DNA of 64,000 bases, from the NCBI GenBank assembly GCA_910577205.1, contig CAJTMA010000006.1, positions 4,770-68,769 of the forward strand, given 5' to 3'. A program made the position numbers and the translations under genes. Positions 13,744 through 49,037 of the stretch are shown in pieces. The notes beneath the pieces were generated by a model. It was not told the origin of the DNA, searched no databases, and saw only the letters and a list, made by a program, of their open reading frames with translations. The first letter of the stretch is position 1, and every line of letters starts with the position of its first letter. The DNA is from an uncultured Alphaproteobacteria bacterium (GTDB taxonomy: Bacteria > Pseudomonadota > Alphaproteobacteria > RF32 > CAG-239).

Positions 13744-14541
13744 ATGAATTTTATTGATTTGGGTTTAAGCAGCAAAACCGTGCAGGCTATTGACGAGTTT
13801 GGCATTACCGAGCCAACAACCGTGCAGGCTGATGTCATCCCTTCCATTTTGCAAGGCAAAGATGTCTTTACGATTGCGCCGGCAGGCTGCGGCAAAACAA
13901 CTTCTTATGTTTTTCCGTTGCTGGATGTTATTTCCGGTGCTGACGGAAAACAAAAAAATATCCTGATTATTACGCCGGATTCCGAGCAGTCGGTTGTTGT
14001 TTCTGACAGAATGGCCATCTTCAACAAATATCATGAAATTAATGAAGCGACCATCAAAGACAAGGCTGAAGATATTGATAACGAAGCCAACGTCATTATC
14101 GGTTCTCCCGAGCTTTTGGTTGAACTGGTTAACGAAGAAAAACTCGACTTAGCCAAAACCAATATTTTAGTAGTGGATGATATTAATCTCATCAAAAAGA
14201 AAAAACAGCTGAACAATCTGGAAAAAATTCTGGATTTATTGCCAGCCGATAAACAAAATATTGTCTATACCAACCGCCGCTCCAAAGAAACTCAAGGCAT
14301 TTTAGATAAGATTTTGAAAGCGCCGGAAGAAATCAAAGTTGACAAGGCAAAAGAACAGGAAGCCGAACTGACGGCTAAAAATCCTGCACAGGAAACTGCC
14401 GCTCCCAAACAAAACAATCACCGTTGCAAACAGCCGGTTAAAGACAGCGAAGCTTTGGAACTGGTGAAAAAATATGACTCGTTCAACGGCAAGACGCCAT
14501 CTTTCCTGATAAATAAAGGCATCATAGTTAATATCGATTAA
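13744..14541 (+). CDS. DEAD-box-like protein with only the N-terminal RecA domain and degenerate motifs
   Basis: The Q motif (PTTVQ) and Walker A (APAGCGKT) are present. Motif II is VVDDIN in place of DEAD, and motif III is absent. No helicase C domain follows. The C-terminus is K/E-rich. I set the start at MNFIDLG (13744). Confidence 0.6.
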   Translation: MNFIDLGLSSKTVQAIDEFGITEPTTVQADVIPSILQGKDVFTIAPAGCGKTTSYVFPLLDVISGADGKQKNILIITPDSEQSVVVSDRMAIFNKYHEINEATIKDKAEDIDNEANVIIGSPELLVELVNEEKLDLAKTNILVVDDINLIKKKKQLNNLEKILDLLPADKQNIVYTNRRSKETQGILDKILKAPEEIKVDKAKEQEAELTAKNPAQETAAPKQNNHRCKQPVKDSEALELVKKYDSFNGKTPSFLINKGIIVNID

Positions 14542-14577
14542 AAAAGTCCCCTTGCTTTGGCAAGGGGACTTTTATTT
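14541..14577. terminator. bidirectional intrinsic terminator
   Basis: AAAAAGTCCCCTTGC-tttg-GCAAGGGGACTTTTATTT between the convergent DEAD-like gene and XRE copy 1. Confidence 0.6.
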
Positions 14578-14821
14578 AGGAAATATCTTCGAGTTCTATC
14601 TTGATTTTGCAGTTGTAAAACCCGGCCAGATAACTGAGCATACCCCAGTGAACATAGGCCTTGCCGCTTTCCACTTGGTCAAAGTAATGCGGCGAAACAC
14701 TGACTTTCATCGCCAATTCGTCGAGCGTCATCTTTTGCGATAGCCGCCGCTCATAAAACTGCCGCCCTAAATGGGCAAAAGTTTCCTGATTATTTTTTCT
14801 GATTTGTTTTTTGGTTAACAT
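14576..14821 (-). CDS. XRE-family helix-turn-helix transcriptional regulator (module copy 1)
   Basis: The HTH region is QKMTLDELAMKVSVSPHYFDQVESG. It is near-identical to the ORF at 48743-49000, differing by V/I and S/A. I chose the start at the second ATG (MLTKKQ), which has a GGAG RBS. The track start is 14833. Confidence 0.75.
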   Translation of the reverse strand: MLTKKQIRKNNQETFAHLGRQFYERRLSQKMTLDELAMKVSVSPHYFDQVESGKAYVHWGMLSYLAGFYNCKIKIELEDIS

Positions 14822-14926
14822 TTCCAACTCCATTTTTGTTTTTTAATAAACCCCACTTAATCTCCCCTTAAATTAAGGGGAGAAAGTCATGTTGCTCAGC
14901 AACATGACCAGAGGGGTTTTATAAGT

Positions 14927-15089
14927 TAAACAAAACCTGCCTTTAGCTTCCTAAAGGCAGGGGAGTTCGAAACTGTAACAGAACAGTCCGGGTTATTCGC
15001 GCATAGCCTTATCTCCCCGGCTCCCCTCAAAAGGAGTCGTTCTTTTCTGTTAGGAGTTTCGATACTCCACAATCCGTCTCCGGACTGCG
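14927..15089 (-). ncRNA. candidate structured small RNA or cis-regulatory leader (module copy 1)
   Basis: The promoter is TTGCAA-16 nt-TACAAT (15096-15123 on the minus strand). A long-range helix pairs CAGTCCGG with CCGGACTG, and there are several internal hairpins. It ends in the GC-rich hairpin CCTGCCTTTA...TAAAGGCAGG followed by a T-run. The second copy at 48485-48648 carries stem-preserving substitutions. Confidence 0.5.
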
Positions 15090-15252
15090 AGAATGATTGT
15101 AAGGCAAAATAGTTAATTTGCAATGAAAAAAAGCCTTACCCGGCGGGGTATTGGTCTTATTTCAGTTGCCGAGATTACTTCGTCACGCGTTTCTTGTGAG
15201 GACTGTTCTGTAAAAAAATCTCCGGCTTGCGGAGATTCTTAAAAGGGTGTCC

Positions 15253-35838: not shown

Positions 35839-35913
35839 GCCGCTGTAGCTCAGTGGTAGAGCACGTCATTGGTAATGACGGGGTCGCAAGTCCGATTCTT
35901 GCCAGCGGCACCA
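35839..35913 (+). tRNA. tRNA-Thr (anticodon GGU), CCA encoded
   Basis: Manual fold. The acceptor stem GCCGCTG pairs with CAGCGGC. The D stem is GCTC/GAGC. The anticodon stem CGTCA/TGACG carries the loop TTGGTAA, giving anticodon GGT. The T stem is GCAAG/CTTGC. The T loop TCCGATT is slightly unusual. Confidence 0.8.
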
Positions 35914-35916
35914 TTA

Positions 35917-35945
35917 AAAAAGCCTCCTTTAGGGAGGCTTTTTTA
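35917..35945. terminator. intrinsic terminator after the tRNA
   Basis: AAAAAAGCCTCCC-ttta-GGGAGGCTTTTTTAA. Confidence 0.6.
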
Positions 35946-35949
35946 ATGG

Positions 35950-36100
35950 TTATCGTGGGACGGGCGGAATTGCGAAGCAAGTCTGACGAAGCCGGTTGGC
36001 GGCCATCAATCGGCGAAGGACGAGGAGCTAAAGCGACGAGGTCTTGAGCGGCAGCGAAAGATGCGCTCTACCGAAAGCCCCCGCACCTTCAAAGCCAGCG
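35950..36100. repeat. solitary degenerate unit of the 80-bp repeat family (left boundary of the AT-rich islet)
   Basis: Positions 35974-36002 (GAAGCAAGTCTGACGAAGCCGGTTGGCGG) are identical to 39968-39996 in the last unit of the tandem array. The downstream CCGCACCTTCAA motif is also shared with 40052-40063. Confidence 0.6.
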
Positions 36101-36116
36101 TCACCATTTTTAGAAA

Positions 36117-36230
36117 TGCACCTTTTGAGGTGTTTTTTTTGTTATGTAAACCAAGCCTTTCAACAGTCCGATTAATGAGTTTTTGAAATAAGCACTTTTG
36201 TAAGATTATCGGTTCTTTTCGTAGCAATGA
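36117..36230. repeat. ~110-bp direct repeat, copy A (terminator-like hairpin plus conserved tail)
   Basis: CACCTTTTGAGGTG followed by T8, then ...CAGTCCGATTAATGAG.... The diverged copy B lies at 36955-37070. Confidence 0.5.
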
Positions 36231-36832
36231 ATTACGTCATAAAAAAACGGCATCGTAACATTTAAAACAATATCAGGGTTTTGATAGAAATCCCGTAAGT
36301 AAGATTGTAATTCAACTTGAATCACATTCGGCTGATTGAAAGTTTTTTGATAACGCCCTGTAAAACCAACTTTTCCTGTATAATCAGGGTGATTGACCAC
36401 CGTTTTTAATTTATATTGTTTTGCAATTTGCAAAATATGATTTAAATAAGGATAATTCTTATCATCAAAATCAGCTATACCTAAACAGATATCATAATCA
36501 ATTTCTTGATTAAAACCATGAATATCTAAAAAGTAATGGTCTTGTAAATTGTGTTCTGCAACATAATCAGAGATGAGAAATTTGTAAGGGGTAAATTTTG
36601 TTCGCACTAAAGTTGATATTTTGTTTACAGCCCCAAGATGCTTAACAAGCGCACCAGTATATAGATCTGCGCATTTTTCTTTTTTATTACAAAAACTCCG
36701 TGTTGCGTGCGGCGCAGAAAGGATTAATGAAGAAGAATAATCTATAAACTCAAAAACATCTTCTCTTTCTTCTTGTCCATGAGAACGATTTAAGATGAAA
36801 CATTCGTTATATTTTTTTAGAGTATCAATCAT
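36206..36832 (-). CDS. hypothetical protein, possibly a zinc amidase of the PghP / N-formylglutamate-amidohydrolase-like fold
   Basis: 208 aa from AT-rich DNA. The motifs SAPHATRS and FLDIHGF resemble the His-containing zinc-site motifs of phage-type poly-gamma-glutamate hydrolases. This comes from memory and is not verified. The gene is flanked by ~110-bp direct repeats. Confidence 0.5.
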   Translation of the reverse strand: MIDTLKKYNECFILNRSHGQEEREDVFEFIDYSSSLILSAPHATRSFCNKKEKCADLYTGALVKHLGAVNKISTLVRTKFTPYKFLISDYVAEHNLQDHYFLDIHGFNQEIDYDICLGIADFDDKNYPYLNHILQIAKQYKLKTVVNHPDYTGKVGFTGRYQKTFNQPNVIQVELQSYLRDFYQNPDIVLNVTMPFFYDVIHCYEKNR

Positions 36833-36954
36833 AATATTAAGTATAGATATTTAATCGTTAAAAATCAGTGTCAAATAACTTAATTTTTACTCAACTCCTT
36901 AAACCTCTCGGTCTCATCAGTCCGATAATCGCACTGTATCGCGCACCATTTGTT

Positions 36955-37070
36955 AAAATACACCTTTTAAGGTGCTTTTTTGTTATGAAAACCAAGGTTT
37001 ACAGTCAGTCCGATTTGAGAGATTTTTAAATAGCATTTTTTAATAATCTATCGGACTTTTGCCAGAAAGA
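36955..37070. repeat. ~110-bp direct repeat, copy B
   Basis: CACCTTTTAAGGTG followed by CT6, then ...CAGTCAGTCCGATTTGAGAG.... It is about 70% identical to copy A. Confidence 0.5.
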
Positions 37071-37199
37071 TAGCAGGCACAAGTGTTTACTCTTCTTAAT
37101 CCGTCTTCAATAAATTTTAATTGTTTGATTTTACCATATATAAAATTTAATAGTAAGATTACCTTATGTACATTCTGATAGCTTTTTTTTGCACCTATC

Positions 37200-38051
37200 T
37201 TGCATTCATTATCTTGTATTATTGATGCACATTTTTCAAACAGTATTTTTAATAAAACAACATCTCTTATTTTTTACGCTACCATAACAAATATAATTAT
37301 TATTCCTTTTTTATTTTTGTTTGGAACTCCGACACTCCCTTCGTGGTCTTCATTAACGGTCATTTTCATCGTTGGGGCGATAGATGTATTTTATCAAATT
37401 CCGTATTATATTGCTTTGCGTAAGGTTGACACATCAATCACGGTTGCATTGTTTTCTCTTGGAAAAGTATCTGTTCCGATTTTAGCATATTTCATTGTTG
37501 GTGAAAAATTGAGTATAATGCAATATGTTGGGTTTGGCATTATTCTTTTATCAAGCTTTTTATTAAACTTTAATCGAAAACAGTTAAAATTAAATATTGC
37601 CTTTTTTCTTATGCTAATAGTGTCATTAGCTTTATCACTAGCTTCGGTATTGGAAAAATATTCTCTTAAAGAAATTGATTTTGTAACACTTATCTTCTGG
37701 ATGGTTTTATTTTCAACATCAATATCTTTTTCTTTCCTTTTTATTAAAAATATAAGGCAGGACATTATAGATACATTTCCGAAATATAAAAAAGCCATTT
37801 CACTGTTTTTAAGTAATGAGGTATTGAGTCAGGGAGGCTCATTGGCAATGATTATCGCTCTTTCTCAACTTCCTGTTTTAACTATAAAATCAATAAATTC
37901 ATCTCAAAGTATATTTACTTTATTGTTTGGTTTTGTTCTCTATAAAATTTTTGGAGATAGGTTTAAAGAAAATTTAACTCGAGATAAAGTTATAAAAAAA
38001 CTAATTTCTTTTATTTTTATTATGATAGGAATATATTTGGTTTTAAGTTAA
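37200..38051 (+). CDS. DMT/EamA-like 10-TM transporter
   Basis: 283 aa and very AT-rich. It has ten hydrophobic helices in a 5+5 arrangement typical of drug/metabolite transporters. Confidence 0.55.
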   Translation: MHSLSCIIDAHFSNSIFNKTTSLIFYATITNIIIIPFLFLFGTPTLPSWSSLTVIFIVGAIDVFYQIPYYIALRKVDTSITVALFSLGKVSVPILAYFIVGEKLSIMQYVGFGIILLSSFLLNFNRKQLKLNIAFFLMLIVSLALSLASVLEKYSLKEIDFVTLIFWMVLFSTSISFSFLFIKNIRQDIIDTFPKYKKAISLFLSNEVLSQGGSLAMIIALSQLPVLTIKSINSSQSIFTLLFGFVLYKIFGDRFKENLTRDKVIKKLISFIFIMIGIYLVLS

Positions 38052-38197
38052 CGTCAGTTTTATATTCCTGCTCAGGATTTTAAGTCTAATAATTGCTCAG
38101 CATAAATTTTTCCAGAAACTATACCTGCAGAAGCTTTGTGTTATTTTCAATTTTAGTCATAAAAAAGACTTGCTTTGAAAAAAGCAAGTCTTTTTTA

Positions 38198-38848
38198 TTA
38201 TATGCGGCTTTCAGTCCATAGTGGTGTTAAAGTTTCTTTATACTGAGTATAATCAGTATATAACTTTTCATATTTGACAATCAGGTGCTTTTTAGCCATC
38301 CGCCACTCCGGATGTTCTTTAGCATTGATAACATGGTAGCTGTTGTCAGACAAAATAAAATGGAAAAGGTAAAACTCTTCACCATAAATACGGCCTGTAT
38401 ATCTTCCATTAATTTTGCCGTTGCTTTTTGACATACCAGCACCGACACCGCCACCAATACCGAGAACACCTCCGCCACCTCCGATTGATGATAAGTCACC
38501 GTTCAAAGAACCGTGCTCTTGAGTATCGGCTTCTTTTTCCCAGGAACAGGCAATAATTTTCAGCTTTTTGCTAACATTATTCTTTTTTATAAATTCCTGA
38601 AGTTTGTCAGTTTCTGCTTGTCGTGTTGCCCGTTGTTTTTCCACCTCAATCAGGTAAACAGAATCAACAGACAATCTGATAGATTTTTGTACCGTTTGTT
38701 CACAATTCGCAAGATATTCTTCTATTTTCTTTTGTTCCGCTTGCAGTGTGGAGATTTGAGAATCAGAGATAAAGTTTTCTGCTTGATATTTTTGAAGCTG
38801 ATCTCTGGAGGCTTCCCCATATAAAAGCAATAGCTTCCCACACAACAA
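38198..38848 (-). CDS. hypothetical protein with a coiled-coil N-terminus and a glycine-zipper motif. It may be the 3' part of a frameshifted gene.
   Basis: The GGGGGVLGIGGGVGAGMS tract resembles a glycine zipper of the SlyB/17-kDa-antigen type. There is no signal peptide of its own. The first 127 bp overlap the upstream ORF in another frame. Confidence 0.4.
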   Translation of the reverse strand: MLCGKLLLLYGEASRDQLQKYQAENFISDSQISTLQAEQKKIEEYLANCEQTVQKSIRLSVDSVYLIEVEKQRATRQAETDKLQEFIKKNNVSKKLKIIACSWEKEADTQEHGSLNGDLSSIGGGGGVLGIGGGVGAGMSKSNGKINGRYTGRIYGEEFYLFHFILSDNSYHVINAKEHPEWRMAKKHLIVKYEKLYTDYTQYKETLTPLWTESRI

Positions 38849-39252
38849 CTTCCGATAAACATGATGGAAGCAATCAGCATACCCGAATTACTGCTTTCTT
38901 CATAAACTTGCCCTCTAAAATCAACTTTGTCCCGCGGTATAGATTTTAGAAATAAAAATATAGAAAAAACAATAGGTATGACCATCCAATGTTTGATATC
39001 ATCATATGAGCTACTCATTTTTTGCTTTTCGGCGGTTAATTCATTTTTCCGATTGGAAATCGTTTGAGTAATCGCCGATAACTTTTTTCTTTGCTCGTGA
39101 TAACCGTGCTTGCTTATTTCTTTATCGTAAAATTGCTTTTCGATAACCCGTTTATCGATGTTAGATAAATATCCTGTAGCGTTTTGCGCATACAACAAAC
39201 AAAATATCGGCATAAGTGCCGACAAAACTGCAATAATAATTTTCTTTTTCAT
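38722..39252 (-). CDS. hypothetical secreted or membrane protein (signal peptide plus two TM helices)
   Basis: MKKKIIIAVLSALMPIFCLLYAQN is a signal peptide. Hydrophobic segments follow (WMVIPIVFSIFLFL, MLIASIMFIGSCCVGSYCFY) and the tail is basic. Confidence 0.45.
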   Translation of the reverse strand: MKKKIIIAVLSALMPIFCLLYAQNATGYLSNIDKRVIEKQFYDKEISKHGYHEQRKKLSAITQTISNRKNELTAEKQKMSSSYDDIKHWMVIPIVFSIFLFLKSIPRDKVDFRGQVYEESSNSGMLIASIMFIGSCCVGSYCFYMGKPPEISFKNIKQKTLSLILKSPHCKRNKRK

Positions 39253-39423
39253 AATGTTTTATTTTAATTGTTAATATTTTTTAAAACAAAAAACATTTTT
39301 GAAACCAAGATTGATTACTCAATAATTGACTACAATAATGCTTTTTAATGAGTAAAGAATATCACATCCCCCTATTTTTGCAAGCACAAAAATTGACAAA
39401 AAAGGAGAGATAAGGAGTTTTGC

Positions 39424-40026
39424 GGCGGAGGGAGAGGCGCTTTATGGCGAGGGGTGAGCCGAGTTGCAAAGCAAGTTTGGCAAGCCGGTTGGCGGCGGTC
39501 ATCGGCGAAGCGAGAGGCGTTTTGAGGCGGAGGTTGAGCCGAGTTGCAAAGCAAGTTTGGCAAGCCTGCCGGTGGCGGTCATCGGCGGAGGGAGAGGCGC
39601 TTTGAGGCGGAGGTTGAGCCGCGTTGCGAAGCAAGTCCGACAAGCTGGTTGGCGGCAGTCATCGGCGGAGGGAGAGGCGTTTTATGGCGTGGGGTGAGCC
39701 GCGTTGCGAAGCTAGTCCGGCAAGCCGGTTGGCGGAGGTCATCGGTAGAGGATGTGCCGCAAAGCGCCACAGGTTGGGCTGAGTTGCGAAGCTAGTCCGG
39801 CAAGCCGGTTGGCGGAGGTCATCGGTAGAGGATGTGCCGCAAAGCGCCACAGGTTGAGCTGAGTTGCGAAGCAAGTCCGGCAAGCCGGTTGGCGGCGGTC
39901 ATCGGCGGAGGATGAGGAGCTTTGTGACGTGGGTTGAGCCGTGTTGTGAAGCAAGTCTGACGAAGCCGGTTGGCGGAGGTCATCGGCGGAGGATGAGGCG
40001 CTTTGTGGTGTGAGTTGAGCCATTAA
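39424..40026. repeat. tandem array of about 7.5 copies of an 80-bp repeat, not a CRISPR array
   Basis: Full units start at 39456, 39536, 39616, 39696, 39776, 39856 and 39936. A representative unit is GAGCCGAGTTGCAAAGCAAGTTTGGCAAGCCGGTTGGCGGCGGTCATCGGCGGAGGGAGAGGCGCTTTGAGGCGGAGGTT. Copies are about 85-97% identical and there are no unique spacers. Each unit contains the small palindromes TTGCaaaGCAA and GCCGgttggCGGC. Confidence 0.85.
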
Positions 40027-40032
40027 CAAAAG

Positions 40033-40063
40033 GTGCGGACGCTATCGCTATCCGCACCTTCAA
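40033..40063 (-). terminator. hairpin downstream of the autotransporter stop, a weak terminator
   Basis: AAGGTGCGGA-cgctatcgcta-TCCGCACCTT has a 10-bp stem. On the minus strand the hairpin is followed only by the short T-containing tract TTGTT. Confidence 0.35.
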
Positions 40064-40089
40064 TATCTGCCCTTTTCAGTCTAAACGCA

Positions 40090-43000
40090 CTACCAGTTAT
40101 AACTTGTACCCAAGCCTAAGGATGATGCCCGGTAATGACTGCCGAAGGTATGGTTGGCCCAGCCGTATGCTGAGAAGTAATCAGAGAAACCATAGCGGCC
40201 GCCTACTTCTAAACGTCCCAATGTTTGATTTTTCAGCACGTCCATTTTTCGCAAGCCAGTCACTTTTACCTCATCGCCATCATTAAATGTTTGAACCAAA
40301 ATTGGTTTGACATAAACATTGCCGTAGCCGTCATCGACTTCAAATGTCTTGGTCAATCTGGTACCAAATTCTGCTTCCATTTGTCTTAATGGGGTATACT
40401 GAGCTGTTTTGCCAGCGCTATCACTTGCATTATCATACTTGACCTGTGTATAAAAGAGGCCGACTTCCGGTGTGAAATAGAGCGATTTGTTCAGCGCATA
40501 ATCATAACCAAACGCGACACTACCACCAAACTCTGTTCCGTCAGTATTTGAGGTTATACCGTCTTTCGTTTTGATATCAACCTGCTGTATCCCGCCAAAC
40601 AAAGTCGCAAAAGCCCACCAATTTCTTTGATCGTAACGGTAATACAATCCGGCCAAATAGCTATCGATGTCAATTTCCGATTCTGTTACTGAGTAATAAT
40701 AACGGCCATAGCCATTCATGTCATAATTACCCTTACGATAAGAGAAGAACAATCCCAGTTTGTTATACAAGTCGTGTTGCAGCGTACCGCCGGCTTCCAA
40801 GCCCCAAACGTCAGATTCAACACCGACAGTTTCTTTATTCGTTGAAGAATAATAAACAGCGTTCGCCCACAGCGTATCAAACGGTTTACCATCCCAATAA
40901 AAATCATAGAAACCGCAAGACGGGCAATAAAGTCTGTTTCCCTGAACCTGACGGTCAATATTGCCAATCATTCCTCTGGTCTGCTCCAGTGCGGCTACAG
41001 GTAAAGCCTGATAAGCAATGACTTCAGGCACAACCTTACGCCCACGGCTAAATACCGGAGAAGAGATATTCGGAATATTGGGCACATCCGGGATATTCGG
41101 AACATCCGGAACGCCGGGAAGATCCGGCTGGGCATTCTTATCAGGATTGTCACTGTCGTTCATAACCAAATCCCATTGATTGGCATTATTTCCAAGGGAA
41201 GCGTATTTGACATCATACAAATAAGGGCTTCTGTAAACGCGCGAAACCACAAATGATCCCTCGTTACCGGTCGTATCATTTTCTGACTGTGCAAACAAGA
41301 TACTTCCCTTGCCGCGAATATCCGTGTCGGAAGAAGCATGAACAATCACTTTAGTCACACCTTCAACATTACCGGCGATATGCAACTCGTCCGCCGTCAT
41401 ATTATCCGGGTCAACATTAATATGCAGAAAACTGTCTGTCGCCGAATATCCTTTGAGGTTGACAATATCCCGATAATTGTTGGCCAAGCTAAAGACCGCA
41501 TTGTTCAATGTCAAAGTGGTTGCAGCGTCATCACGGTTGACAGAGCCATCCGTGTTCAACGCGGCAGCAAACGCACCTTTGCTATCCCAATTGCGGGCGC
41601 TTTGATCTTCGTGCTGATAGTCGCCGAAAACAAGAGATGTTCCGCTGACGGTTACACTTTCGGCATTGATAATATCGTTGTTCATTGCAATATATTGGGA
41701 AGTTGTTCCCTTAACGGCATCAACGACATCGTCTCCCGTAAAGTTGTATATTCCATTTCTCAAGTTATCATTAATAACCCAGCTGCCGCCGCCGGAAGTA
41801 TCAAAAGTAAATTCAGAAGTTGTATTTCCGAGCACAGCATTATAAATTTTGCCATAACTGCCGTTTTCCGTATAGTTGCCGGACATGAAATATGTATCAG
41901 CTCCGGAAGCGAATGTCATATTGCCAAGCGTATATACCGCGCCGCCCGATTTGGCATGATTGTTAAGGAAATTGCCGCTGATTTTGCCAAATACAGCTCC
42001 GGTATTGCCATAGATAGCGCCACCGTATTCGACAGCCGAGTTCCCGATAAAATCACCGCTGATAGTCCCAATGGTTTTATTCAAATCATTATAAATAGCG
42101 CCGCCGCGTTTTTCCGCTGAATTGGCGATGAAATCTCCGGAGATGTTTTTGATTTCCTTAGCGTTTTTGATAGCGCCGCCATGCCCCAATGTGGCATTGC
42201 CGATGAAGTTTCCGTTAATTTCATTAATGGTTCCCATACCGCCATTGTTAATAGCACCGCCGCCATAATCACTGACATTGCTGTTTGCCTTGTTAGCAAT
42301 AAAATCACCGGTAATTTTGTTAATTGTTCCTTCGTTTTCTATTGCCCCTGCTTTAATCCCTGCTGTATTGCCAATGAAATCTCCGGTAATATCGCCGATT
42401 TGCCCGTAATGGTAATTGTAAACAGCACCACCGATTGCAGCGGCCGAATTAGCGATAAAATTGCCGGTAATATCTTCAATAACCCGACTAGTGCTATTAT
42501 AAATAGCGCCGCCGGAGCCGTTTGTACCATCAACATGATTGCCGACGAAATCACCGGTTAGATTGCCCATCGTGCTGTTATTGCTAATAGCACCGCCGTT
42601 AGTTATTGCGGCATTGGCAATAAAGTTGCCGGTAACATCTCCGGTTGTTCCCTCATTGTAAATCGCACCGCCTGAGCCGCCTCCCGGAGCCTGCCCTGCT
42701 ATATTGCCAATAAAGTCACCGTTAATATTGCCAATTTGCGCGTTTTTATAGTTATAAATAGCGCCGCCGTTTCCTTTTTGGTCGCTTCGCGCCAGCCCTG
42801 TATAGTTGCCAACAAAGTCACTGTTTATTTCACCTATTGTTCCGGAGTTGTAAATAGCGCCGGCACCACTTGGAGCATAGTTGTGTACGAAACTCCCCTT
42901 AATACTGTCAATTGTTCCGCTGTTATTGATACCGCCGCCTTTTGAAGCACTTCTTTCGATATTTACAAAATCGGCATCAACATCACCGGTTAAACCTGTT

Positions 43001-43446
43001 TGAGCAGATGTGTATTTTGTGCGACCGGGAATATCCGTATATGTATATTTGAAATACTGCGTGTCACCATTAGGAAGTTGGAGTTTAACGACATCATCCC
43101 CTTCGGCAGAAACTTTTTCCCATGAAATATTTTCCGCCGATGAAAATTTATCCTGAAGCATGACTATTTTATAATATTTATTGCTTAAGTTACCCTTATC
43201 GTCTGCTTCCTGAATAATAAAATCATAATCGCTGTCAGAACCTTCCTGATATGTAAAGGCACTGGACGGGAGTGTCGTTAAGTCAAACAAAGCGTTCGGG
43301 GTTTCCGTCAATGCTCCGGCAGGCGCAACACCGTTTGCTTCTGCGCTTGATTTATTTAATGTTGGTTCTAAAGACCATGCTGAAGACGACACGCCCCCTA
43401 AAGCGGCGGCCATTAACATTATTGTCCAAGTAGTTTGTTTAGTCAT
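40090..43446 (-). CDS. autotransporter outer-membrane protein with a Pmp-like GGAI/FxxN repeat passenger
   Basis: The signal peptide is MTKQTTWTIMLMAAALGGVSSSAWS. There are more than 20 degenerate repeats of the form G(D/N)FIGN...GGAIYN. A C-terminal beta-barrel region of about 280 aa ends in ...GTSYNW, an aromatic terminus. Confidence 0.85.
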   Translation of the reverse strand: MTKQTTWTIMLMAAALGGVSSSAWSLEPTLNKSSAEANGVAPAGALTETPNALFDLTTLPSSAFTYQEGSDSDYDFIIQEADDKGNLSNKYYKIVMLQDKFSSAENISWEKVSAEGDDVVKLQLPNGDTQYFKYTYTDIPGRTKYTSAQTGLTGDVDADFVNIERSASKGGGINNSGTIDSIKGSFVHNYAPSGAGAIYNSGTIGEINSDFVGNYTGLARSDQKGNGGAIYNYKNAQIGNINGDFIGNIAGQAPGGGSGGAIYNEGTTGDVTGNFIANAAITNGGAISNNSTMGNLTGDFVGNHVDGTNGSGGAIYNSTSRVIEDITGNFIANSAAAIGGAVYNYHYGQIGDITGDFIGNTAGIKAGAIENEGTINKITGDFIANKANSNVSDYGGGAINNGGMGTINEINGNFIGNATLGHGGAIKNAKEIKNISGDFIANSAEKRGGAIYNDLNKTIGTISGDFIGNSAVEYGGAIYGNTGAVFGKISGNFLNNHAKSGGAVYTLGNMTFASGADTYFMSGNYTENGSYGKIYNAVLGNTTSEFTFDTSGGGSWVINDNLRNGIYNFTGDDVVDAVKGTTSQYIAMNNDIINAESVTVSGTSLVFGDYQHEDQSARNWDSKGAFAAALNTDGSVNRDDAATTLTLNNAVFSLANNYRDIVNLKGYSATDSFLHINVDPDNMTADELHIAGNVEGVTKVIVHASSDTDIRGKGSILFAQSENDTTGNEGSFVVSRVYRSPYLYDVKYASLGNNANQWDLVMNDSDNPDKNAQPDLPGVPDVPNIPDVPNIPNISSPVFSRGRKVVPEVIAYQALPVAALEQTRGMIGNIDRQVQGNRLYCPSCGFYDFYWDGKPFDTLWANAVYYSSTNKETVGVESDVWGLEAGGTLQHDLYNKLGLFFSYRKGNYDMNGYGRYYYSVTESEIDIDSYLAGLYYRYDQRNWWAFATLFGGIQQVDIKTKDGITSNTDGTEFGGSVAFGYDYALNKSLYFTPEVGLFYTQVKYDNASDSAGKTAQYTPLRQMEAEFGTRLTKTFEVDDGYGNVYVKPILVQTFNDGDEVKVTGLRKMDVLKNQTLGRLEVGGRYGFSDYFSAYGWANHTFGSHYRASSLGLGTSYNW

Positions 43447-43610
43447 TTTCTTGCCAAAAAATTAGTATATGTATCTTAAAATACATTAAATGTATAATGA
43501 ACGGGTTAAAAAATTACTAAAACACTTATGAGAGGGATTTTAATCAATGTTCCAAGCTTTGAATAAAACAAAAACACCGCAATTCAAATGAACTGCGGTG
43601 TTTTTGTTAG

Positions 43611-44234
43611 TTATGCAAACTCATTGTAAAGAAAATACATAGCCGCATACTCTTTTGTTTGTTCTTTGCCCTTTTCAGAAATTTGGGTACGGATATCTGC
43701 CAAGGCCATTAACGCAGAAATCCTTTTACCTTTCAAATCCGGCAAAGTTTCTCCAAAAGTTTTGGTCTGAAGTTTTTGCCACCAGGGTTGTTTTTGATCC
43801 TCGACGTTAAACTCCACAACAAAGCGGCGGCTGTATGAAACTTCCTCCTCTCCATTCGAGGTACGATACAGCTCAACATCATAGTTTCCGTCAGGAACAC
43901 TTGTGAATTCCAAACACCCTTTGGGAATAAGGTAAATCTCGCCGGAGAATGGAATGTACACGCCATCAAAATCAGACGTACTGCATTGGTTCAGGCAGCA
44001 TAGTACCATAATGGTATGTTCCCTGAAGAAACCATAGTCATAGCCAAGCTTCTTGCAGGCCGAATAATATTTTTCGGACACCCGGGCACAAACTAACTCG
44101 GTTTGCGCAACGCTGAACGGGGTGAATGAGAACGCAGCCGATACCATATCCTTTACTTCTTCGGCGCCAAACTTCTGGGATGCTTTCAAGATGCTGTCAT
44201 CACATGACATCTTCGCAATAATTATTGTATTCAT
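43611..44234 (-). CDS. hypothetical protein
   Basis: 207-aa ORF in an AT-rich patch. It has several Cys and no recognisable motif. Confidence 0.4.
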   Translation of the reverse strand: MNTIIIAKMSCDDSILKASQKFGAEEVKDMVSAAFSFTPFSVAQTELVCARVSEKYYSACKKLGYDYGFFREHTIMVLCCLNQCSTSDFDGVYIPFSGEIYLIPKGCLEFTSVPDGNYDVELYRTSNGEEEVSYSRRFVVEFNVEDQKQPWWQKLQTKTFGETLPDLKGKRISALMALADIRTQISEKGKEQTKEYAAMYFLYNEFA

Positions 44235-44444
44235 ACTTTTGTGAAATAATTAAATTAAAAATATCAAATCGGAAATCTTATAGACAATTTCGAAAACTTT
44301 GTCAATATACTTTTTAAGGGAAACAAATTTTAATAAAACTATTGAAATGCATAAGAAAACATTATATGTTATTGCTAATTATTTATTATTTTGTTTTCGT
44401 TTCTGTTCAGGAAACTATGTTAAATCTTAAAAATATGTATTATT

Positions 44445-44678
44445 ATGGACACAAAAAAAGTTTTAGTTCTTGAATGCGTTGCTGCCAAACTTCAAATCAG
44501 CCCTCAAGAACTTGCTCAATGGCTTGAGAATCGCAAACAGGCTCAACAGCTCGCAGCGAAAGCATCGTTTGAGGATAAACTTCAAGGATTTGTTATCTTG
44601 ACAGAAGCTGTTACAGACCTTGCTGAAGATATCAAAAAGAAAGCGGCCTCCGACGCGCAATCATGGAGCGGACATTAA
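44445..44678 (+). CDS. hypothetical small helical protein
   Basis: 77 aa. It is followed by a clean intrinsic terminator. Confidence 0.4.
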   Translation: MDTKKVLVLECVAAKLQISPQELAQWLENRKQAQQLAAKASFEDKLQGFVILTEAVTDLAEDIKKKAASDAQSWSGH

Positions 44679-44692
44679 GCTGCTTCCCCATT

Positions 44693-44725
44693 CAAAAAAA
44701 CTCCCTATATCAGGGAGTTTTTTGG
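44693..44725 (+). terminator. intrinsic terminator
   Basis: AAAAAAACTCCCT-atatc-AGGGAGTTTTTTGG. Confidence 0.5.
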
Positions 44726-44803
44726 TTTAAACATAACTCAGCTTTGTGCCCGGACGAAGCGCGAACAGTCAATCCTTTTGCGCCAGCCAGGGAGATGTTT
44801 ATT

Positions 44804-45685
44804 TTACAATGCTTCAAGCATCTTTTTATAATAGTTTAAAACGGTTCGAATCTTGGGAATATCTTTAATCGTCCGGTGGGTAATCAAATAGATTGTTGCT
44901 TCGGCACTGCATGGGATATTATCCAAACACACCATTCCATGGCCGCCGCGGACAAAGTTCAGCGGCATGATGGCAATTCCTGACCCGCTGATAGCCAAGT
45001 CATTAACGACAAACGTACTGTTTGAAAAACAGATGCCTTTCTCGGCTTTTTGCTGCAATTTTTTAGCTTCCGGCGTTTGCCACCAGCCCTCATTTTTGAC
45101 AAGAAGCCGATGATTTTTTAACAAATCGTTCAAATCCTGCGGGTAAGAATGTTTAGCCAAATATTCTGAAGATGCAAAAAAGCCGAATTTTACTTTCCGG
45201 CTGTATACAACCACCAAATCTTCCCCTTTGGGAACAGTATAGCTCATGCAGATATCATAAGCCATTTTGTGCATATCCGGCGCTTTATCAAAAGTATCAA
45301 TAAATAAAGACAAATCAGGAGATTGCTCCAACAGTTCTTCTAGGCAGACATACATATTGCTGCGCGCGTCGCGCTCATATGCAATACGCACCTCCCCTTT
45401 AACATTGGTTTCAGAAGGAACAATGGCATAGGCTTGCTGCAAATGTTGTTTAAGGACATCGGCAATTGCAACCACCTTTTCGCCTTTCGGTGTCAGGGTA
45501 CAGCCCTTTTCATCCGAAGCGACGAGCTTAACGCCCAATTCACTTTCCAGATTGTTAACATACTTATTTAACGTATCAATTGAGGTATTCAAAAATTTGG
45601 CAGCATTCCGTTTGCCGGAACTCTTTTTAATCGCATGGAGCATCATAATACCCTCCATGTTCATTAAATCTTTTTTACTAAACAT
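44804..45685 (-). CDS. LysR-family transcriptional regulator
   Basis: The N-terminal HTH (AAKFLNTSIDTLNKYVNNLESELGVKLV) is followed by a LysR substrate-binding domain. Confidence 0.85.
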   Translation of the reverse strand: MFSKKDLMNMEGIMMLHAIKKSSGKRNAAKFLNTSIDTLNKYVNNLESELGVKLVASDEKGCTLTPKGEKVVAIADVLKQHLQQAYAIVPSETNVKGEVRIAYERDARSNMYVCLEELLEQSPDLSLFIDTFDKAPDMHKMAYDICMSYTVPKGEDLVVVYSRKVKFGFFASSEYLAKHSYPQDLNDLLKNHRLLVKNEGWWQTPEAKKLQQKAEKGICFSNSTFVVNDLAISGSGIAIMPLNFVRGGHGMVCLDNIPCSAEATIYLITHRTIKDIPKIRTVLNYYKKMLEAL

Positions 45686-45828
45686 TATGATAGTCCTTAA
45701 ATGTTAGCATAGTAGGCTAAAGTTAATGATAATGGCGGTATACACTACAATACTTTTAATTGCAAGTCTTTTTATTATATAAAAGTTAATATTTGCACAT
45801 ATTAATTGTACTTGCAATATCTGCAAAT

Positions 45829-45999
45829 TTATGCGTCTTCCTGAGATTCTTTTTTTAATTGCTCTCTGGCGGCCTGCTGTTGTTTGCGTTTTTGCAAATT
45901 CTTTTGCAGCGCTTTGGCCTCACGCTCAAAACGTTCTTTGCTGCGCGGCCCGTGCGCCGTGTTCTTTTTTTCTTTTTTTTCGGTCATCGTCTTATCCAT
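45829..45999 (-). CDS. small Lys/Arg-rich protein (56 aa), absent from the ORF track
   Basis: ATG at 45999. The protein is MDKTMTEKKEKKNTAHGPRSKERFEREAKALQKNLQKRKQQQAAREQLKKESQEDA. The listed + strand ORF 45831-46037 is its antisense. Confidence 0.35.
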   Translation of the reverse strand: MDKTMTEKKEKKNTAHGPRSKERFEREAKALQKNLQKRKQQQAAREQLKKESQEDA

Positions 46000-46121
46000 T
46001 ATGTTATTATAAGCTTATCTTAGAGCGGAGAAGTTAACAAATCATAACCTTAAAACCGTTTCGTCACTTTTAACTATCTTTTTAAGCCCAAATCTGTTAA
46101 ACTTCTTTTAGATACTTATGC

Positions 46122-46979
46122 TTGGAAGTTAAAAACATGACTGACAACGACGAGAAAAATAAAGAGAAAAAAGCTAAAAAACAAAAAAAGCAAACCAAGA
46201 AAGGCAAAGCATTAGCCCTGATTGCCGGCGGTAAGGCACTGCAAGTTGCCGGAAAAGCAATGAAAGCGACGGCTAAAGCCATGCAGCAGGCCGCCAAAGT
46301 CATGTTGAGAACGGCCAAAGCAATGGCAAGAACCGCAATTAAGATGGTTCAAGCTGCGGCGAGCACCGGGCCGGCTGCGGTTGTTTTAGTTCCTGCCGCC
46401 AGCGTAGCCGCCGCAGGTTTACTTGCAGGGTCTGCAGCATTAGGCGCGACAGGTATGGCTTTATCCGTCACCGCCAAAGTAACAGACAAAGTTGGCAGCC
46501 TGATGCAGAAAAGCGGTCAAAAAATGCAGGAAAAAGGCAATAAGATTCTTGCAAAGATTAAAGAACAAGGCATTGAGCAAACTCAGGAAGCTTCCAAAGA
46601 ACAAGAGAGCCAGACAATCCAGAATATTATGGAAAATGTGATGGAGCAGCAAACTAAGGGGCAAATGACGACTCAAGACAAAGACCAAATTGCCGCATTA
46701 TCGGGCAGACCAGCTCCCAACGGGAGAACAGCCTCCCCATCCCAAGCCAATAACAACCAGCCGGAACAAACCCCGCTTCAGCCAAGCGCGGCGGCAGAGA
46801 ATGCTCCGGCCTCACCACAGGCGGCCAGCGAAAAACAGGTTACCCCTAAGAAAAACAAGACCGGGCGCAAGATTTATGAACTTAGCGGCAGAAGAAGCTC
46901 TCGCAGGAAGACACCGGTTAAGCAAACAACCCTGAATCCGAATATGCTGACAGCAAACAGAGGCAGAAGCGCCAGCTAG
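46122..46979 (+). CDS. hypothetical low-complexity protein with AKAM-type amphipathic repeats, a hydrophobic core, and a Q/P-rich basic tail
   Basis: A K-rich N-terminus is followed by the repeats AGKAMKATAKAMQQAAKVMLRTAKAMARTAIKM. A hydrophobic stretch follows (AAVVLVPAASVAAAGLLAGSAALGATGMALSV). The tail is Q/P/S-rich. Confidence 0.5.
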   Translation: MEVKNMTDNDEKNKEKKAKKQKKQTKKGKALALIAGGKALQVAGKAMKATAKAMQQAAKVMLRTAKAMARTAIKMVQAAASTGPAAVVLVPAASVAAAGLLAGSAALGATGMALSVTAKVTDKVGSLMQKSGQKMQEKGNKILAKIKEQGIEQTQEASKEQESQTIQNIMENVMEQQTKGQMTTQDKDQIAALSGRPAPNGRTASPSQANNNQPEQTPLQPSAAAENAPASPQAASEKQVTPKKNKTGRKIYELSGRRSSRRKTPVKQTTLNPNMLTANRGRSAS

Positions 46980-47111
46980 CCGCTTTAAGTGTCACTCCCT
47001 CTAAAAAAATATTGAAGTCATTTTTTTTTAACTTATCCGTTTTAGAATAACGGTATAATCAATTATGCCCGTCAACAGGAAGAAACAGGCTAGAAGAAAA
47101 GGATAAGTTTC

Positions 47112-48404
47112 ATGGATAAAATTAAAATCATCGGCGGCAACCGTTTGGAAGGCAAAATTTACATCAGCGGCGCAAAAAATGCCGCTTTGCCGTTAATTTG
47201 TGCCAGTTTATTAACCGACGAAACTATTACGCTGACGAATATGCCGGCATTATCCGATATTCGTTCAATGAATGCTTTGCTGGAACAAATGGGCACACAA
47301 ATTGACAGTTTTGATGATTTCTTAGACGGGCATGAAACCAAAACCTATTCCTATCGCACGCCCAAATTTACCAGTTTAATTGCGCCCTATGATTATGTCC
47401 GCAAAATGCGGGCATCCTATTATGTTTTAGGACCGGTATTGGCCAGAGAAGGCCATGCAGAGCTTTCCCTGCCGGGCGGTTGCGCCATCGGTGCGCGGCC
47501 GATGGATATCCACCTGACCTCTCTGGAGCAGATGGGAGCAAAAATCGAAATCAAAAACGGTTATGTTCACGCCGATATTAACGGCAAGCTGAAAGGCGCG
47601 CACATCACTTTTCATACGGCTTCTGTCGGCGCAACCTGCAATATTTTGATGGCCGCAACTTTGGCTGAGGGCGAAACTATTATTGAAAACGCCGCCAAAG
47701 AACCGGAAATCGCCGATTTGATTGATTTATTGATTGCCATGGGAGCGCAAATTGAAGGCAAGAACACGTCCAAACTGGTTATCCAAGGCGTGGACAAGCT
47801 TCATGGCGCAAGACATAAAGTAATCGCAGACCGTATTGAAGCCGGGTCTTATGCCATTGCCGCGGCAATTACCAACGGACGGATTGAACTGGTTAACGCG
47901 CAGGCTTCCACTTTGCGCACACCGCTGGAAATCCTGAAAGCGATGGGCGTTTCTGTTGAAGAAGGCGATAACAGCCTGACAATTGACGCAACCAACCGAA
48001 AATTAACCGGGCAAGATATTATGACCGATTATTACCCCGGATTTCCGACTGATTTGCAAGCGCAGTTTATGGCTCTTATGACTGTTTCGGAAGGCGCGTC
48101 GCTGGTGACGGAAAATATTTGGGAAAACCGCTTTATGCACGTTCCGGAATTAATGCGCATGGGGGCTAACATTAATGTACACGGCCACGCTTCGGCTATT
48201 GTTCGCGGCGTTAAGCAACTTTCCGGCGCGCCAGTCATGGCAACGGATTTACGAGCCTCATTCGCTTTAATTCTGGCCGGACTGGTTGCAGAGGGCGAAA
48301 CGATTGTTAACCGCGTTTATCATCTGGATCGTGGCTATGAAAAGCTGGATGAAAAACTGAAAGCTGTCGGTGCTAATGTTGAGCGGATTAAAGAAGCTGA
48401 ATAA
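47112..48404 (+). CDS. murA: UDP-N-acetylglucosamine 1-carboxyvinyltransferase
   Basis: 430 aa. The N-terminus MDKIKIIGGNRLEGKIYISGAKNAALPLICASLLT is the typical MurA start. The active-site Cys loop is present (PGGCAIGARPMD). Confidence 0.95.
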   Translation: MDKIKIIGGNRLEGKIYISGAKNAALPLICASLLTDETITLTNMPALSDIRSMNALLEQMGTQIDSFDDFLDGHETKTYSYRTPKFTSLIAPYDYVRKMRASYYVLGPVLAREGHAELSLPGGCAIGARPMDIHLTSLEQMGAKIEIKNGYVHADINGKLKGAHITFHTASVGATCNILMAATLAEGETIIENAAKEPEIADLIDLLIAMGAQIEGKNTSKLVIQGVDKLHGARHKVIADRIEAGSYAIAAAITNGRIELVNAQASTLRTPLEILKAMGVSVEEGDNSLTIDATNRKLTGQDIMTDYYPGFPTDLQAQFMALMTVSEGASLVTENIWENRFMHVPELMRMGANINVHGHASAIVRGVKQLSGAPVMATDLRASFALILAGLVAEGETIVNRVYHLDRGYEKLDEKLKAVGANVERIKEAE

Positions 48405-48416
48405 TATAAGCTAATC

Positions 48417-48450
48417 AAAAGCCCCTTGCCCAAGCAAGGGGCTTTTTTTC
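48417..48450 (+). terminator. murA intrinsic terminator
   Basis: AAAAGCCCCTTGC-ccaa-GCAAGGGGC followed by T7. Confidence 0.7.
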
Positions 48451-48478
48451 ATTGCAAATTAACTTTTTTCCCTTACAA
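48451..48478 (+). promoter_or_regulatory. near-consensus sigma70 promoter of the structured RNA (module copy 2)
   Basis: TTGCAA (48451-48456), a 16-nt spacer, then TACAAT (48473-48478). The same arrangement is found in copy 1. Confidence 0.6.
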
Positions 48479-48484
48479 TCATTC

Positions 48485-48648
48485 TCGCAGTCCGGAGACG
48501 GGTTGTGGGGTATGCAAACTCCTACAAGAAAAGAACGACTCCTTTTGAGGGGAGCCGGGGATATAAGGCTATGCGCGAATAACCCGGACTGTTCTTGTAC
48601 AGTTTGCAACTCCCCTGCCTTTAGACTTCTAAAGGCAGGTTTTGTTTT
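48485..48648 (+). ncRNA. candidate structured small RNA or cis-regulatory leader (module copy 2)
   Basis: It begins about 7 nt after the -10 element. The helix CAGTCCGG (~48486) pairs with CCGGACTG (~48586). Hairpins include GGGGTatgcaaACTCC and ACTGTtcttgtACAGT. The terminator is CCTGCCTTTAgacttcTAAAGGCAGG followed by TTTTGTTTT (48614-48648). The ORF-like reading 48452-48703 is not conserved at the protein level between the two copies. Confidence 0.5.
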
Positions 48649-48667
48649 AACTTATAAAACCCCTCTG

Positions 48668-48714
48668 GTCATGTTGCTAAGCAACATGACTTTCTCCCCT
48701 TAATTTAAGGGGAG
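48668..48714 (+). promoter_or_regulatory. two perfect palindromes between the RNA terminator and the XRE gene; candidate operators or mRNA hairpins
   Basis: GTCATGTTGC-taag-GCAACATGAC (48668-48690) and CTCCCCTTA-att-TAAGGGGAG (48694-48714). Both are conserved in copy 1 at 14886-14908 and 14862-14882, with only the loops differing. Confidence 0.5.
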
Positions 48715-48754
48715 ATTAAGTGGGGTTTATCTAAAAACAAAAATGGAGTTGGAA

Positions 48755-49000
48755 ATGTTAACCAAAAAACAAATCAGAAAAAATAATCAGGAAACTTTTG
48801 CCCATTTAGGGCGGCAGTTTTATGAGCGGCGGTTATCACAAAAGATGACGCTTGACGAATTGGCAATGAAAGTCAGTGTTTCGCCGCATTATTTCGATCA
48901 AGTAGAAAGCGGCAAGGCATATATCCACTGGGGAATGCTCAGTTATCTGGCTGGGTTTTACAACTGCAAAATCAAAATAGAACTGGAGGATATTGCTTAA
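48755..49000 (+). CDS. XRE-family helix-turn-helix transcriptional regulator (module copy 2)
   Basis: 81 aa from the second ATG, which has a GGAG RBS. It is near-identical to copy 1, and the HTH is MTLDELAMKVSVSPHYFDQVESG. Confidence 0.75.
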   Translation: MLTKKQIRKNNQETFAHLGRQFYERRLSQKMTLDELAMKVSVSPHYFDQVESGKAYIHWGMLSYLAGFYNCKIKIELEDIA

Positions 49001-49002
49001 AT

Positions 49003-49037
49003 AAAAAGCCCCTTGCCAAAAGCAAGGGGCTTTTTTT
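49003..49037. terminator. bidirectional intrinsic terminator
   Basis: AAAAAGCCCCTTGC-caaaa-GCAAGGGGC followed by T7. It lies between the XRE gene and the convergent ORF at 49036-49506. Confidence 0.65.

Follow-up and report, generated by a model that had tools for sequence, protein, structure and literature searches.

The question addressed here is how a short AT-rich islet directly behind a tRNA-Thr(GGU) gene of an uncultured gut alphaproteobacterium (lineage RF32; CAG-239) was assembled, and whether the 80-nt repeats found at its two ends are its borders. The DNA analyzed, in the following called the window, is a stretch of 64,000 nucleotides (assembly GCA_910577205.1, contig CAJTMA010000006.1, positions 4,770 to 68,769), in which a first, sequence-only reading had described the interval 35946-40070 as one horizontally acquired island at the tRNA or as an insertion into an older repeat array. 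According to our results, the islet is composite and comprises, in this order, an A-type mini-element (A1), a cassette with an FGase-like gene, a cassette with an EamA transporter gene, a frameshifted orphan gene and a second copy of the mini-element with its 80-nt core amplified. It was probably built by repeated site-specific integration at the tRNA 3' end, in the form of cassettes without a recombinase gene that are joined at the junction …GCACCA/T (the slash marks the joint).

The tRNA-Thr(GGU) gene (35839-35913, + strand; ARAGORN; Rfam tRNA, 70.9 bits) ends in …GCAAGTCCGATTCTTGCCAGCGGCACCA, and this 3' end is the attachment (att) site of the hotspot. The adjacent SerRS shares 96% protein identity with its counterpart in the metagenome-assembled genome (MAG) of Candidatus Scatocola faecipullorum and 79-91% with those of dozens of MAGs of uncultured gut Alphaproteobacteria, recovered from chicken, human, deer and rumen samples. 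The gene neighbourhood of tRNA, META and SerRS is kept in many relatives, and several metagenome assemblies carry identical or near-identical copies of the locus.

The drop in GC content behind the tRNA, already noticed in the sequence-only reading, was confirmed. At 36110-39422 the GC content amounts to 31.4% compared to about 45% in the window, which is lower than in any other 3.3-kb window of the 64-kb stretch (mean 45.0%, sd 3.1). The GC content at third codon positions (GC3) is likewise low, the FGase-like gene reaching 22.5% and EamA 20.8%, compared to 49.9% and 48.7% for the core genes SerRS and MurA. Since the blocks of A1 (54.6%) and of the repeat array (62.9%) are GC-rich, the whole interval from 35946 to 40070 reaches 37.3%. 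Across every host examined, the cassette genes show a GC content of 27-33%, the host loci one of 35-45%.

Cassettes and junctions behind tRNA-Thr(GGU)

Two units of the islet, in the following called cassettes B and C, show the same build. Each comprises an L-module, one cargo gene and an R-end of the …GCGCACCA type and is devoid of a recombinase gene, so that both have the retained att-type ends by which cis-mobilizable elements (CIMEs) are recognized. The L-module of about 115 nt, whose motifs follow each other in the order hairpin, GTTATGTAAACCAAG, AGTCCGATT, about 35 nt and ATCGG, was first recognized as a repeated module behind tRNA-Thr by comparison with a related species (L023). It was found on the + strand at 36102-36216 in cassette B (nhmmer E=1.3e-27; core CACCA/TTTTT; terminator hairpin GCACC…GGTG at 36118-36133 according to a terminator scan) and at 36944-37059 in cassette C (nhmmer E=6.5e-29; terminator at 36961-36974). 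The R-end of cassette B is a mimic of the tRNA 3' end of 30 nt (AGTCCGATAATCGCACTGTATCGCGCACCA, 36919-36948, + strand). Its consensus TCATA…TTAGTCCGATAATTGCACAGTATCGCGCACCA/T (about 42 nt) was determined 29 times with at most two mismatches in 25 sequences, some copies being incomplete; the complete copies end in …CACCA, which is followed by a terminator. For cassette C the R-end (38083-38113, + strand; AGTCTAATAATTGCTCAGCATAAATT…) is a variant or degenerate form in which the core GCGCACCA is missing. A similar variant (…GCACAGCATATAAATT) lies at the junction of the FGase and Fic segments in the conspecific strain L123 described below.

On the - strand (36206-36832), cassette B encodes an amidohydrolase-like (FGase-like) protein of 208 aa. 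The gene had been read as a zinc amidase, and a match to the N-formylglutamate amidohydrolase family (PF05013) was indeed obtained, albeit a weak one (E=0.0026) below the Pfam cut-off. At E<=0.001 the protein has 183 homologues in varied contexts, and among the matches listed (120) the identities range from 58% to 100%. The cargo of cassette C is an EamA/DMT transporter gene (37166-38051, + strand), for which Pfam bears out the earlier assignment as a DMT transporter (EamA, E=1.6e-15). Its homologues typically comprise 294 aa. A T tract at 37183-37190 consists of eight T in the window and of six T in L123, and by inspection seven T would restore the 294-aa frame. Since the T8 tract breaks the frame, the listed open reading frame (ORF) starts at 37200. 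The difference may originate from slip-strand variation or from a homopolymer sequencing error.

A comparison within the species was possible with L123, which was assigned to the same species because its SerRS and tRNA flanks are 98.6% identical to the window. In L123 the tRNA is followed by a 3.8-kb island with an N-terminally truncated large serine recombinase (LSR), an EcoRI restriction-modification pair and a 142-aa ORF, and this island terminates in a canonical R-end. Identity to the window restarts only at 36098 (CACCA/TTTTTAG), i.e. at the start of the FGase cassette, and A1 with its repeat unit is therefore absent from this strain. L123 further contains 813 nt of a Fic segment, missing in the window, between its FGase and EamA cassettes. 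From 37058 to the first array unit both sequences are again 98.8% identical. Although the left solo repeat is missing, L123 hence carries the FGase and EamA cassettes, the 351-aa orphan gene and the beginning of the array, and this repeat is therefore one more exchangeable piece instead of a border of the islet.

The same junction architecture is common to over 20 related gut alphaproteobacterial species. At least one junction mark was found downstream of 23 of the 29 tRNA-Thr loci, and four of the six others comprise less than 1 kb of downstream sequence. L-modules follow the tRNA-Thr directly in seven relatives (L006, L016, L022, L023, L034, L035 and L040) and also occur after R-ends farther downstream. 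Not only the architecture, but also single cassettes recur, and their rank varies with the host. The EamA cassette, comprising L-module, gene and R-end within about 1.1 kb, takes rank 1 in L120/L121 (70% aa identity), rank 2 in L118 (91% aa identity) and rank 3 in the window, and an identical cassette for a 213-aa membrane protein was determined at rank 2 in L023 and at rank 1 in L034. In L086 the FGase-like gene was found at the corresponding hotspot, where it follows a tyrosine-integrase island of 5.1 kb with perfect 18-nt tRNA-end repeats; it further occurs in L087 in a region where the system of L-modules and R-ends follows tRNA-Leu(UAA), and in L088 with no modules nearby. Further cargo in relatives comprises Fic proteins, C5 DNA methylases, EcoRI restriction-modification, an SPFH protein and a serine hydrolase. 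As a separate observation, L087 contains six consecutive small ORFs (L087:912-3131), five of them with acyl-carrier-protein (PP-binding) domains.

Recombinases at the site and a possible course of integration

In six relatives (L036, L075, L057, L056, L078 and L029), a 511-aa LSR with Resolvase, Recombinase and Zn_ribbon_recom domains is encoded directly after tRNA-Thr on the opposite strand, with its last codon abutting the tRNA 3' end. In L051 the LSR adjoins an A-type copy of the tRNA end, and LSR relics were found in L123, L063 and L039. Read in the sense of the tRNA, the 3' end of the LSR gene is collinear with the L-module, showing 33 invariant columns and an equal order and spacing of the motifs. 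The AGTCCGAT motifs correspond to LSR coding sequence, and AAAAGTCCGATTATT encodes KSPII. This alignment suggests that the cassettes are recombinase-less derivatives of such elements, and the L-module would be either a retained attL arm or a relic of the 3' end of the recombinase gene.

Based on these data, the following course appears plausible. An LSR element would integrate at the tRNA end, its recombinase gene reading towards the tRNA and ending at the junction. Deletion derivatives would retain just both ends of such an element, together with one cargo gene or two, and could either be moved in trans by the recombinase or simply be left behind. Newcomers would enter at the tRNA end or at one of the copies downstream of it, thereby displacing the older pieces. 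An LSR of this kind would accordingly be the enzyme acting on the junctions described here, and the cassettes may still be able to excise.

Several observations weigh against this reading of the islet. An excised circle or an empty site was seen for no cassette, and the Logan contigs with the same SerRS all end inside the tRNA and are hence uninformative on empty sites. The last R-end in the window is the one without the core. Two of the three cargo genes are frameshifted and most of the arrangement is common to five assemblies of the species, which fits a largely fixed, decaying array. The additional 813-nt Fic segment between the FGase and EamA cassettes of L123 represents a replacement with breakpoints beside AGTCCGAT motifs and not a clean insertion at CACCA. 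The homology of L-module and LSR 3' end consists of one short alignment with a mean column identity of 68%. Moreover, a search of the 64-kb window by tblastn with three tyrosine integrases and one serine recombinase yielded no homologue, in agreement with the sequence-only reading, in which no integrase was visible; of the site-specific recombinase genes expected in a genomic island, none related to these queries lies in the window. Finally, tyrosine integrases also use tRNA-Thr in this clade (L031 and L086), and the assignment to an LSR is therefore not exclusive.

The 7.2-kb island of L031 (L031:342-7594) lies between tRNA-Thr and a perfect 18-nt repeat of the tRNA-Thr 3' end, encodes a 579-aa tyrosine integrase and, judged by inspection only, a small resolvase-like ORF, and carries TGTACC repeats close to its two ends; it represents a separate family of elements that uses this tRNA as well. 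In L086 a 355-aa integrase lies at the tRNA-proximal end of the island, and beside the distal tRNA-end repeat there is a compact tyrosine recombinase of 202 aa (L086:9409-10017), which has a complete Phage_integrase domain.

The 80-nt repeat and the mini-elements behind tRNA genes

The piece closest to the tRNA is A1, an A-type mini-element of 196 nt (35914-36109, + strand). It comprises an intrinsic terminator (about 35916-35945), a solo 80-nt repeat unit (35970-36046), a tail and a copy of the tRNA 3' end (GCCAGCGtCACCA, 36097-36109), which repeats the tRNA positions 35901-35913. The solitary degenerate repeat recognized here by the sequence-only reading proved to be a true member of the repeat family (nhmmer E=5.6e-17). 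The array of 7.5 copies on the right was likewise recovered (39423-40021, + strand; Tandem Repeats Finder: period 80, 82% matches); it shows a GC content of 63% and a GC skew of +0.34 to +0.38. Seven full units were counted in the window, L119 and L122, and six in L001 and L002.

Alignments show the 80-nt unit to be homologous to the 5' half of the A-type core. Among the array units, the last one is closest to the solo copy, with which it has an extra G and a similar tail in common. The 29-nt core reported for these two units is exactly identical and was matched in no shuffle of the window; its first copy lies at 35974-36002 as described, its second one at 39948-39976 instead of 39968-39996, an offset of 20 nt. 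Beyond this core both units have diverged (61-86% over 49 nt). The 12-mer CCGCACCTTCAA does recur in register with the aligned tails, at 36081-36092 (3 nt before the position given earlier, 36084-36095) and at 40052-40063. Since at least two hits were also obtained in 7 of 100 shuffles, the 12-mer alone is weak evidence. In our view, the array arose when part of an older A-type copy, displaced from the tRNA, was amplified locally.

Array units 4 and 5 (39703-39862) are near-identical and show GTGCCGCAAAGCGCCAC where the other units have approximately its reverse complement GAGGCGCTTTGTGGCGG, which appears to reflect the flipping of a quasi-palindromic hairpin segment. A similar flip separates the solo units of L098 and L116. 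The array is followed by a tail hairpin, read from the sequence, on the - strand (AAGGTGCGGA…TCCGCACCTT, 40030-40060), which includes the second copy of CCGCACCTTCAA and, because TTTTGTT follows on this strand, looks like the intrinsic terminator of the autotransporter gene. A CRISPR array was considered and rejected, because the 80-nt units stand head to tail (82% matches between units) and no spacers are present. With regard to a dispersed intergenic repeat of the kind of repetitive extragenic palindromes or miniature inverted-repeat transposable elements, two sites of the family were found within the 64-kb window, which is the part of the genome covered.

Equivalents of A1 with lengths of 183-226 nt stand directly after tRNA-Thr in at least eight other organisms (L014, L017, L020, L028, L041, L051, L068 and L098), each flanked by perfect 16-18-nt tRNA-end repeats. 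Similarly built elements follow tRNA-Trp (L074:1818-1994), tRNA-Arg (L080:8467-8695) and tRNA-Leu (L087:10337-10495), each bordered by a perfect 16-nt repeat of the 3' end of its own tRNA. A conserved core, GACTACnAGCGAAAG…AGACGGnAGTAT…CGGTCAGC…GCTGATRAGCG, is common to the Leu and Trp elements. Those Thr, Leu and Trp elements that were inspected begin with an intrinsic terminator, after which the 5' half of the T-stem is duplicated together with the beginning of the T-loop (GCAAGTCCG for Thr); a purine-rich insert of 85-100 nt and the 3' half of the T-stem through CCA complete the element.

With a lower but not negligible probability, the repeat family is functional itself, either as a structured RNA or as a single-stranded DNA site co-oriented with the tRNA, and the array would then be a multi-copy version of it, for example a platform of RNA or for protein binding. 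Under this explanation the flanking position of the array is incidental to the formation of the island, and it is compatible with site-specific integration of the cassettes. It is suggested by the consensus fold of six Thr-type elements, comprising 44 pairs, for which 96% of the cells are paired compared to 35-45% with slid partners. Five of these pairs show compensatory changes, a number reached in 11 of 500 shuffles, and the invariant G-U pairs favour the tRNA-sense strand. Compensatory changes were also judged by inspection to be present in the core hairpins of the Leu and Trp elements, and a promoter-like site lies upstream of the array (39299-39326). Nonetheless, most pairs are invariant among only six sequences, so that a conserved RNA or single-stranded DNA fold is suggestive only. 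Compensatory changes among the array units were not found, and the promoter-like hits are not enriched in the region (17 compared to 12.4 ± 3.8 expected). A search of Rfam 15, the families of which include ribozymes, group II intron domains and tmRNA, at permissive thresholds gave only tRNA matches for the window and the array, and for the A-type elements of L074, L087, L041 and L047 nothing at E<=10 beyond chance-level hits. Furthermore, the array is unique to the species, which would fit a neutral satellite expansion.

Two known structures were considered by eye for the Leu/Trp core and the 80-nt unit, namely a hammerhead ribozyme and domain V of a group II intron. Both were rejected because essential core nucleotides are absent and Rfam is silent. 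The possibility that the A-type element was left over from the L031 integrase island after a deletion was rejected as well, since that island has unrelated ends with the TGTACC repeats. A relative of the A-type core with no tRNA near was observed in L047 (L047:8378-8842), where it lies between two 116-nt direct repeats of 90% identity and is surrounded by repeats of the short motif TCATCCCCGGGC.

We tentatively consider that the 80-nt repeat belongs to an undescribed class of structured elements of about 150-230 nt directly behind tRNA genes in this clade of gut Alphaproteobacteria, possibly serving as a landing pad, a view we hold with considerable reserve. The A-type element itself may be a small RNA gene or a single-stranded DNA site. 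Its duplicate of the tRNA end may act as a spare att site, at which cassettes would integrate and leave the tRNA and its terminator untouched. If it is a landing pad, the 7.5-unit array would be its amplified form. The tRNA-linked mini-element and the amplified array are the sole parts of the system that may be new.

Extent of the variable region and relation to known systems

Between the EamA gene and the array lies an orphan gene for a membrane protein with signal peptide and glycine zipper (38198-39252, - strand). What had been described as overlapping membrane and glycine-zipper ORFs is one gene of 351 aa. A G run at about 38816-38819 comprises four G in the window and five in L123, and this 1-nt deletion (about 38818) shifts the frame, resulting in two overlapping ORFs. 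The gene is intact in L123-L125 and shows the same split in L001 and L002. For its N-terminal 176-aa ORF, no homologue was found outside the species at E<=1e-5, and the search recovered only this locus once more, in a noisy assembly. Between the converging EamA and 351-aa genes, a hairpin flanked by A/T runs (38161-38196) was read from the sequence, which looks like a bidirectional terminator.

Right of the array follow an autotransporter gene (40090-43446, - strand; confirmed by Pfam), a LysR regulator (44804-45685, - strand) and, within 40090-47111, a 207-aa ORF and a gene for a 285-aa low-complexity protein. In the comparison with related genomes called for by the sequence-only reading, the closest species representative, L006 (SerRS 96%), lacks all islet genes at this place, and the same holds for L014, L016 and L017. 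According to tblastn of the L006 ORFs, the conserved gene order ends at the tRNA and resumes at murA (47112-48404; 87% aa identity to L006). L006 carries a different 4.3 kb between tRNA and murA, and L016 and L017 carry at least 9 kb of unrelated genes. This places the autotransporter, LysR and the neighbouring ORFs in the same variable region, which spans about 11 kb from tRNA-Thr to murA and of which the interval 35946-40070 is the tRNA-proximal third.

Altogether, the data support the view that the islet is foreign, horizontally mobile and non-autonomous DNA at a tRNA integration hotspot. It combines a deviant composition with a variable presence among close relatives and a differing content within the species, and it lies directly 3' of a tRNA, the 3' end of which is repeated distally (GCCAGCGtCACCA; R-ends in …GCGCACCA). 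In this respect, the earlier proposal of a horizontally acquired island at a tRNA stands, except that the island is composite and extends farther than assumed.

It is very improbable that the islet is a single island bordered by the solo unit and the last array unit, or an island inside an older repeat array. The low-GC DNA between the solo unit and the array would fit such borders, as would the identical 29-nt core, the extra G and the tails ending in CCGCACCTTCAA of the two units. However, internal att-like junctions (36097-36109 and 36919-36948) split the islet, the EamA cassette moves independently between species, and in L123, where these cassettes and the beginning of the array are present, the left copy is absent. 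The two copies have diverged outside the 29-nt core, and elsewhere solo units reside in A-type elements at tRNA-Thr with no island between repeats (L098). Since the region reaches murA, the 80-bp copies do not delimit it either. For the insertion into a pre-existing array no support was obtained, as neither 185,579 species genomes nor the JGI metagenome collection yielded a further tandem array of the 80-nt unit. An exact-pattern scan of these genomes for the repeat core gave no hits, and the corresponding scan of the JGI metagenomes gave 29 hits, 27 of which are unrelated contigs, mostly of 65-70% GC and judged to be chance matches, and two of which are true solo copies, both located at tRNA-Thr.

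Similarly improbable is an ancestral region of old AT-rich residents shaped by lineage-specific loss and ordinary rearrangement without site-specific mobility: the arrangement from FGase cassette to array common to five assemblies, the decay of the cargo genes and autotransporter homologues near SerRS in the distant relatives L074, L077, L081 and L084 would agree with it, but strain and species breakpoints fall at conserved CACCA junctions, cassette rank varies, the system of L-modules and R-ends is also found behind tRNA-Leu (L087), GC3 is about 21-23% compared to about 50% in core genes, and recombinase genes occupy exactly the same site in many relatives.

In L020, L056 and L086, the META gene and tRNA-Thr enclose murA, whose relative orientation is reversed compared to the window; this points to a murA segment that was inverted or transposed around the hotspot. 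In the window, an inverted duplicate of about 600 nt and about 90% identity (14540-15135 and 48440-49036, 33 kb apart) flanks the whole hotspot. Each copy comprises an 85-aa helix-turn-helix gene and about 300 nt of upstream non-coding sequence, with near-identical terminator hairpins on both sides. As the cause of the inversion of murA and tRNA this duplicate was rejected, since the geometry does not fit.

Returning to repeated integration at the tRNA end, the closest known analogues appear to be the ssrA islands of Dehalococcoides, the accretion of CIMEs and the tycheposons. In Dehalococcoides, tandem islands are located downstream of the single-copy ssrA gene with direct repeats of the ssrA 3' end at their borders, and a serine recombinase of about 540 aa is encoded on the reverse strand beside attL, where the 3' end of its gene overlaps the att site (PMC3146451). 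Islands without an integration module were interpreted as cis-mobilizable, and the islands are low in GC (PMC3146451; McMurdie et al. 2011). The tandem pile-up, the orientation of the recombinase at the site, the recombinase-less units and the low GC content resemble the situation described here. In contrast, the target here is tRNA-Thr(GGU) and occasionally tRNA-Leu, the units, which hold one or two genes in 0.8-2.5 kb, are much smaller, and the junctions consist of a diverged tRNA-end mimic and a recombinase-gene relic of about 115 nt instead of an exact 20-bp repeat. A six-gene integration module was not seen here, and the two recombinases are likened by their layout alone.

CIMEs, as described with the accretion in streptococcal systems, have lost the genes for integration and transfer, keep attL and attR and accumulate at the 3' end of a target gene in tandem with elements that arrive there (PMC5704250). 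Both the retention of att-type ends without a recombinase and the tandem accretion at a gene 3' end are shared by the cassettes. CIMEs were defined for integrative and conjugative or mobilizable elements of Firmicutes with tyrosine recombinases, for which cis-mobilization is experimental, whereas the present case concerns a candidate LSR of an uncultured alphaproteobacterium and is based on sequence only. For tycheposons of Prochlorococcus, the portions of the preprint consulted describe variable islands next to tRNAs, in which successive integrations push older elements inwards, with scattered partial tRNA copies, degenerate remnants and a minority of elements with large serine recombinases (bioRxiv 10.1101/2020.12.28.424599). 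Elements stacked at one tRNA with partial tRNA copies between the pieces are common to both systems. According to the same portions, tycheposons are mostly tyrosine-recombinase elements with replication genes, and neither a conserved junction module of about 160 nt nor rows of single-gene cassettes were found described there.

A resemblance to integrons is also apparent in the rows of mostly single-gene, recombinase-less cassettes, the recurring site-like module and the rank that varies with the host. Compared to integrons, IntI, attI and Pc are absent, the junctions are not attC sites and the anchor is a tRNA 3' end. In addition, the cassettes carry their own terminators and occur in both orientations, the FGase-like gene being opposite to EamA. 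As the defining features are absent, the resemblance is functional only.

For these bacteria, the finding means that one tRNA gene is a shared docking point for one-gene cassettes and for recombinase islands with restriction-modification, Fic and membrane functions, which shows accessory-gene exchange in uncultured gut Alphaproteobacteria close to Candidatus Scatocola. Should the structured mini-element behind tRNA genes prove functional, it would represent a novel type of small element associated with tRNA 3' ends. The conserved junction sequences provide a handle for mining the cassette pool in metagenomes and allow a direct test of a tRNA-targeting LSR and its minimal sites.

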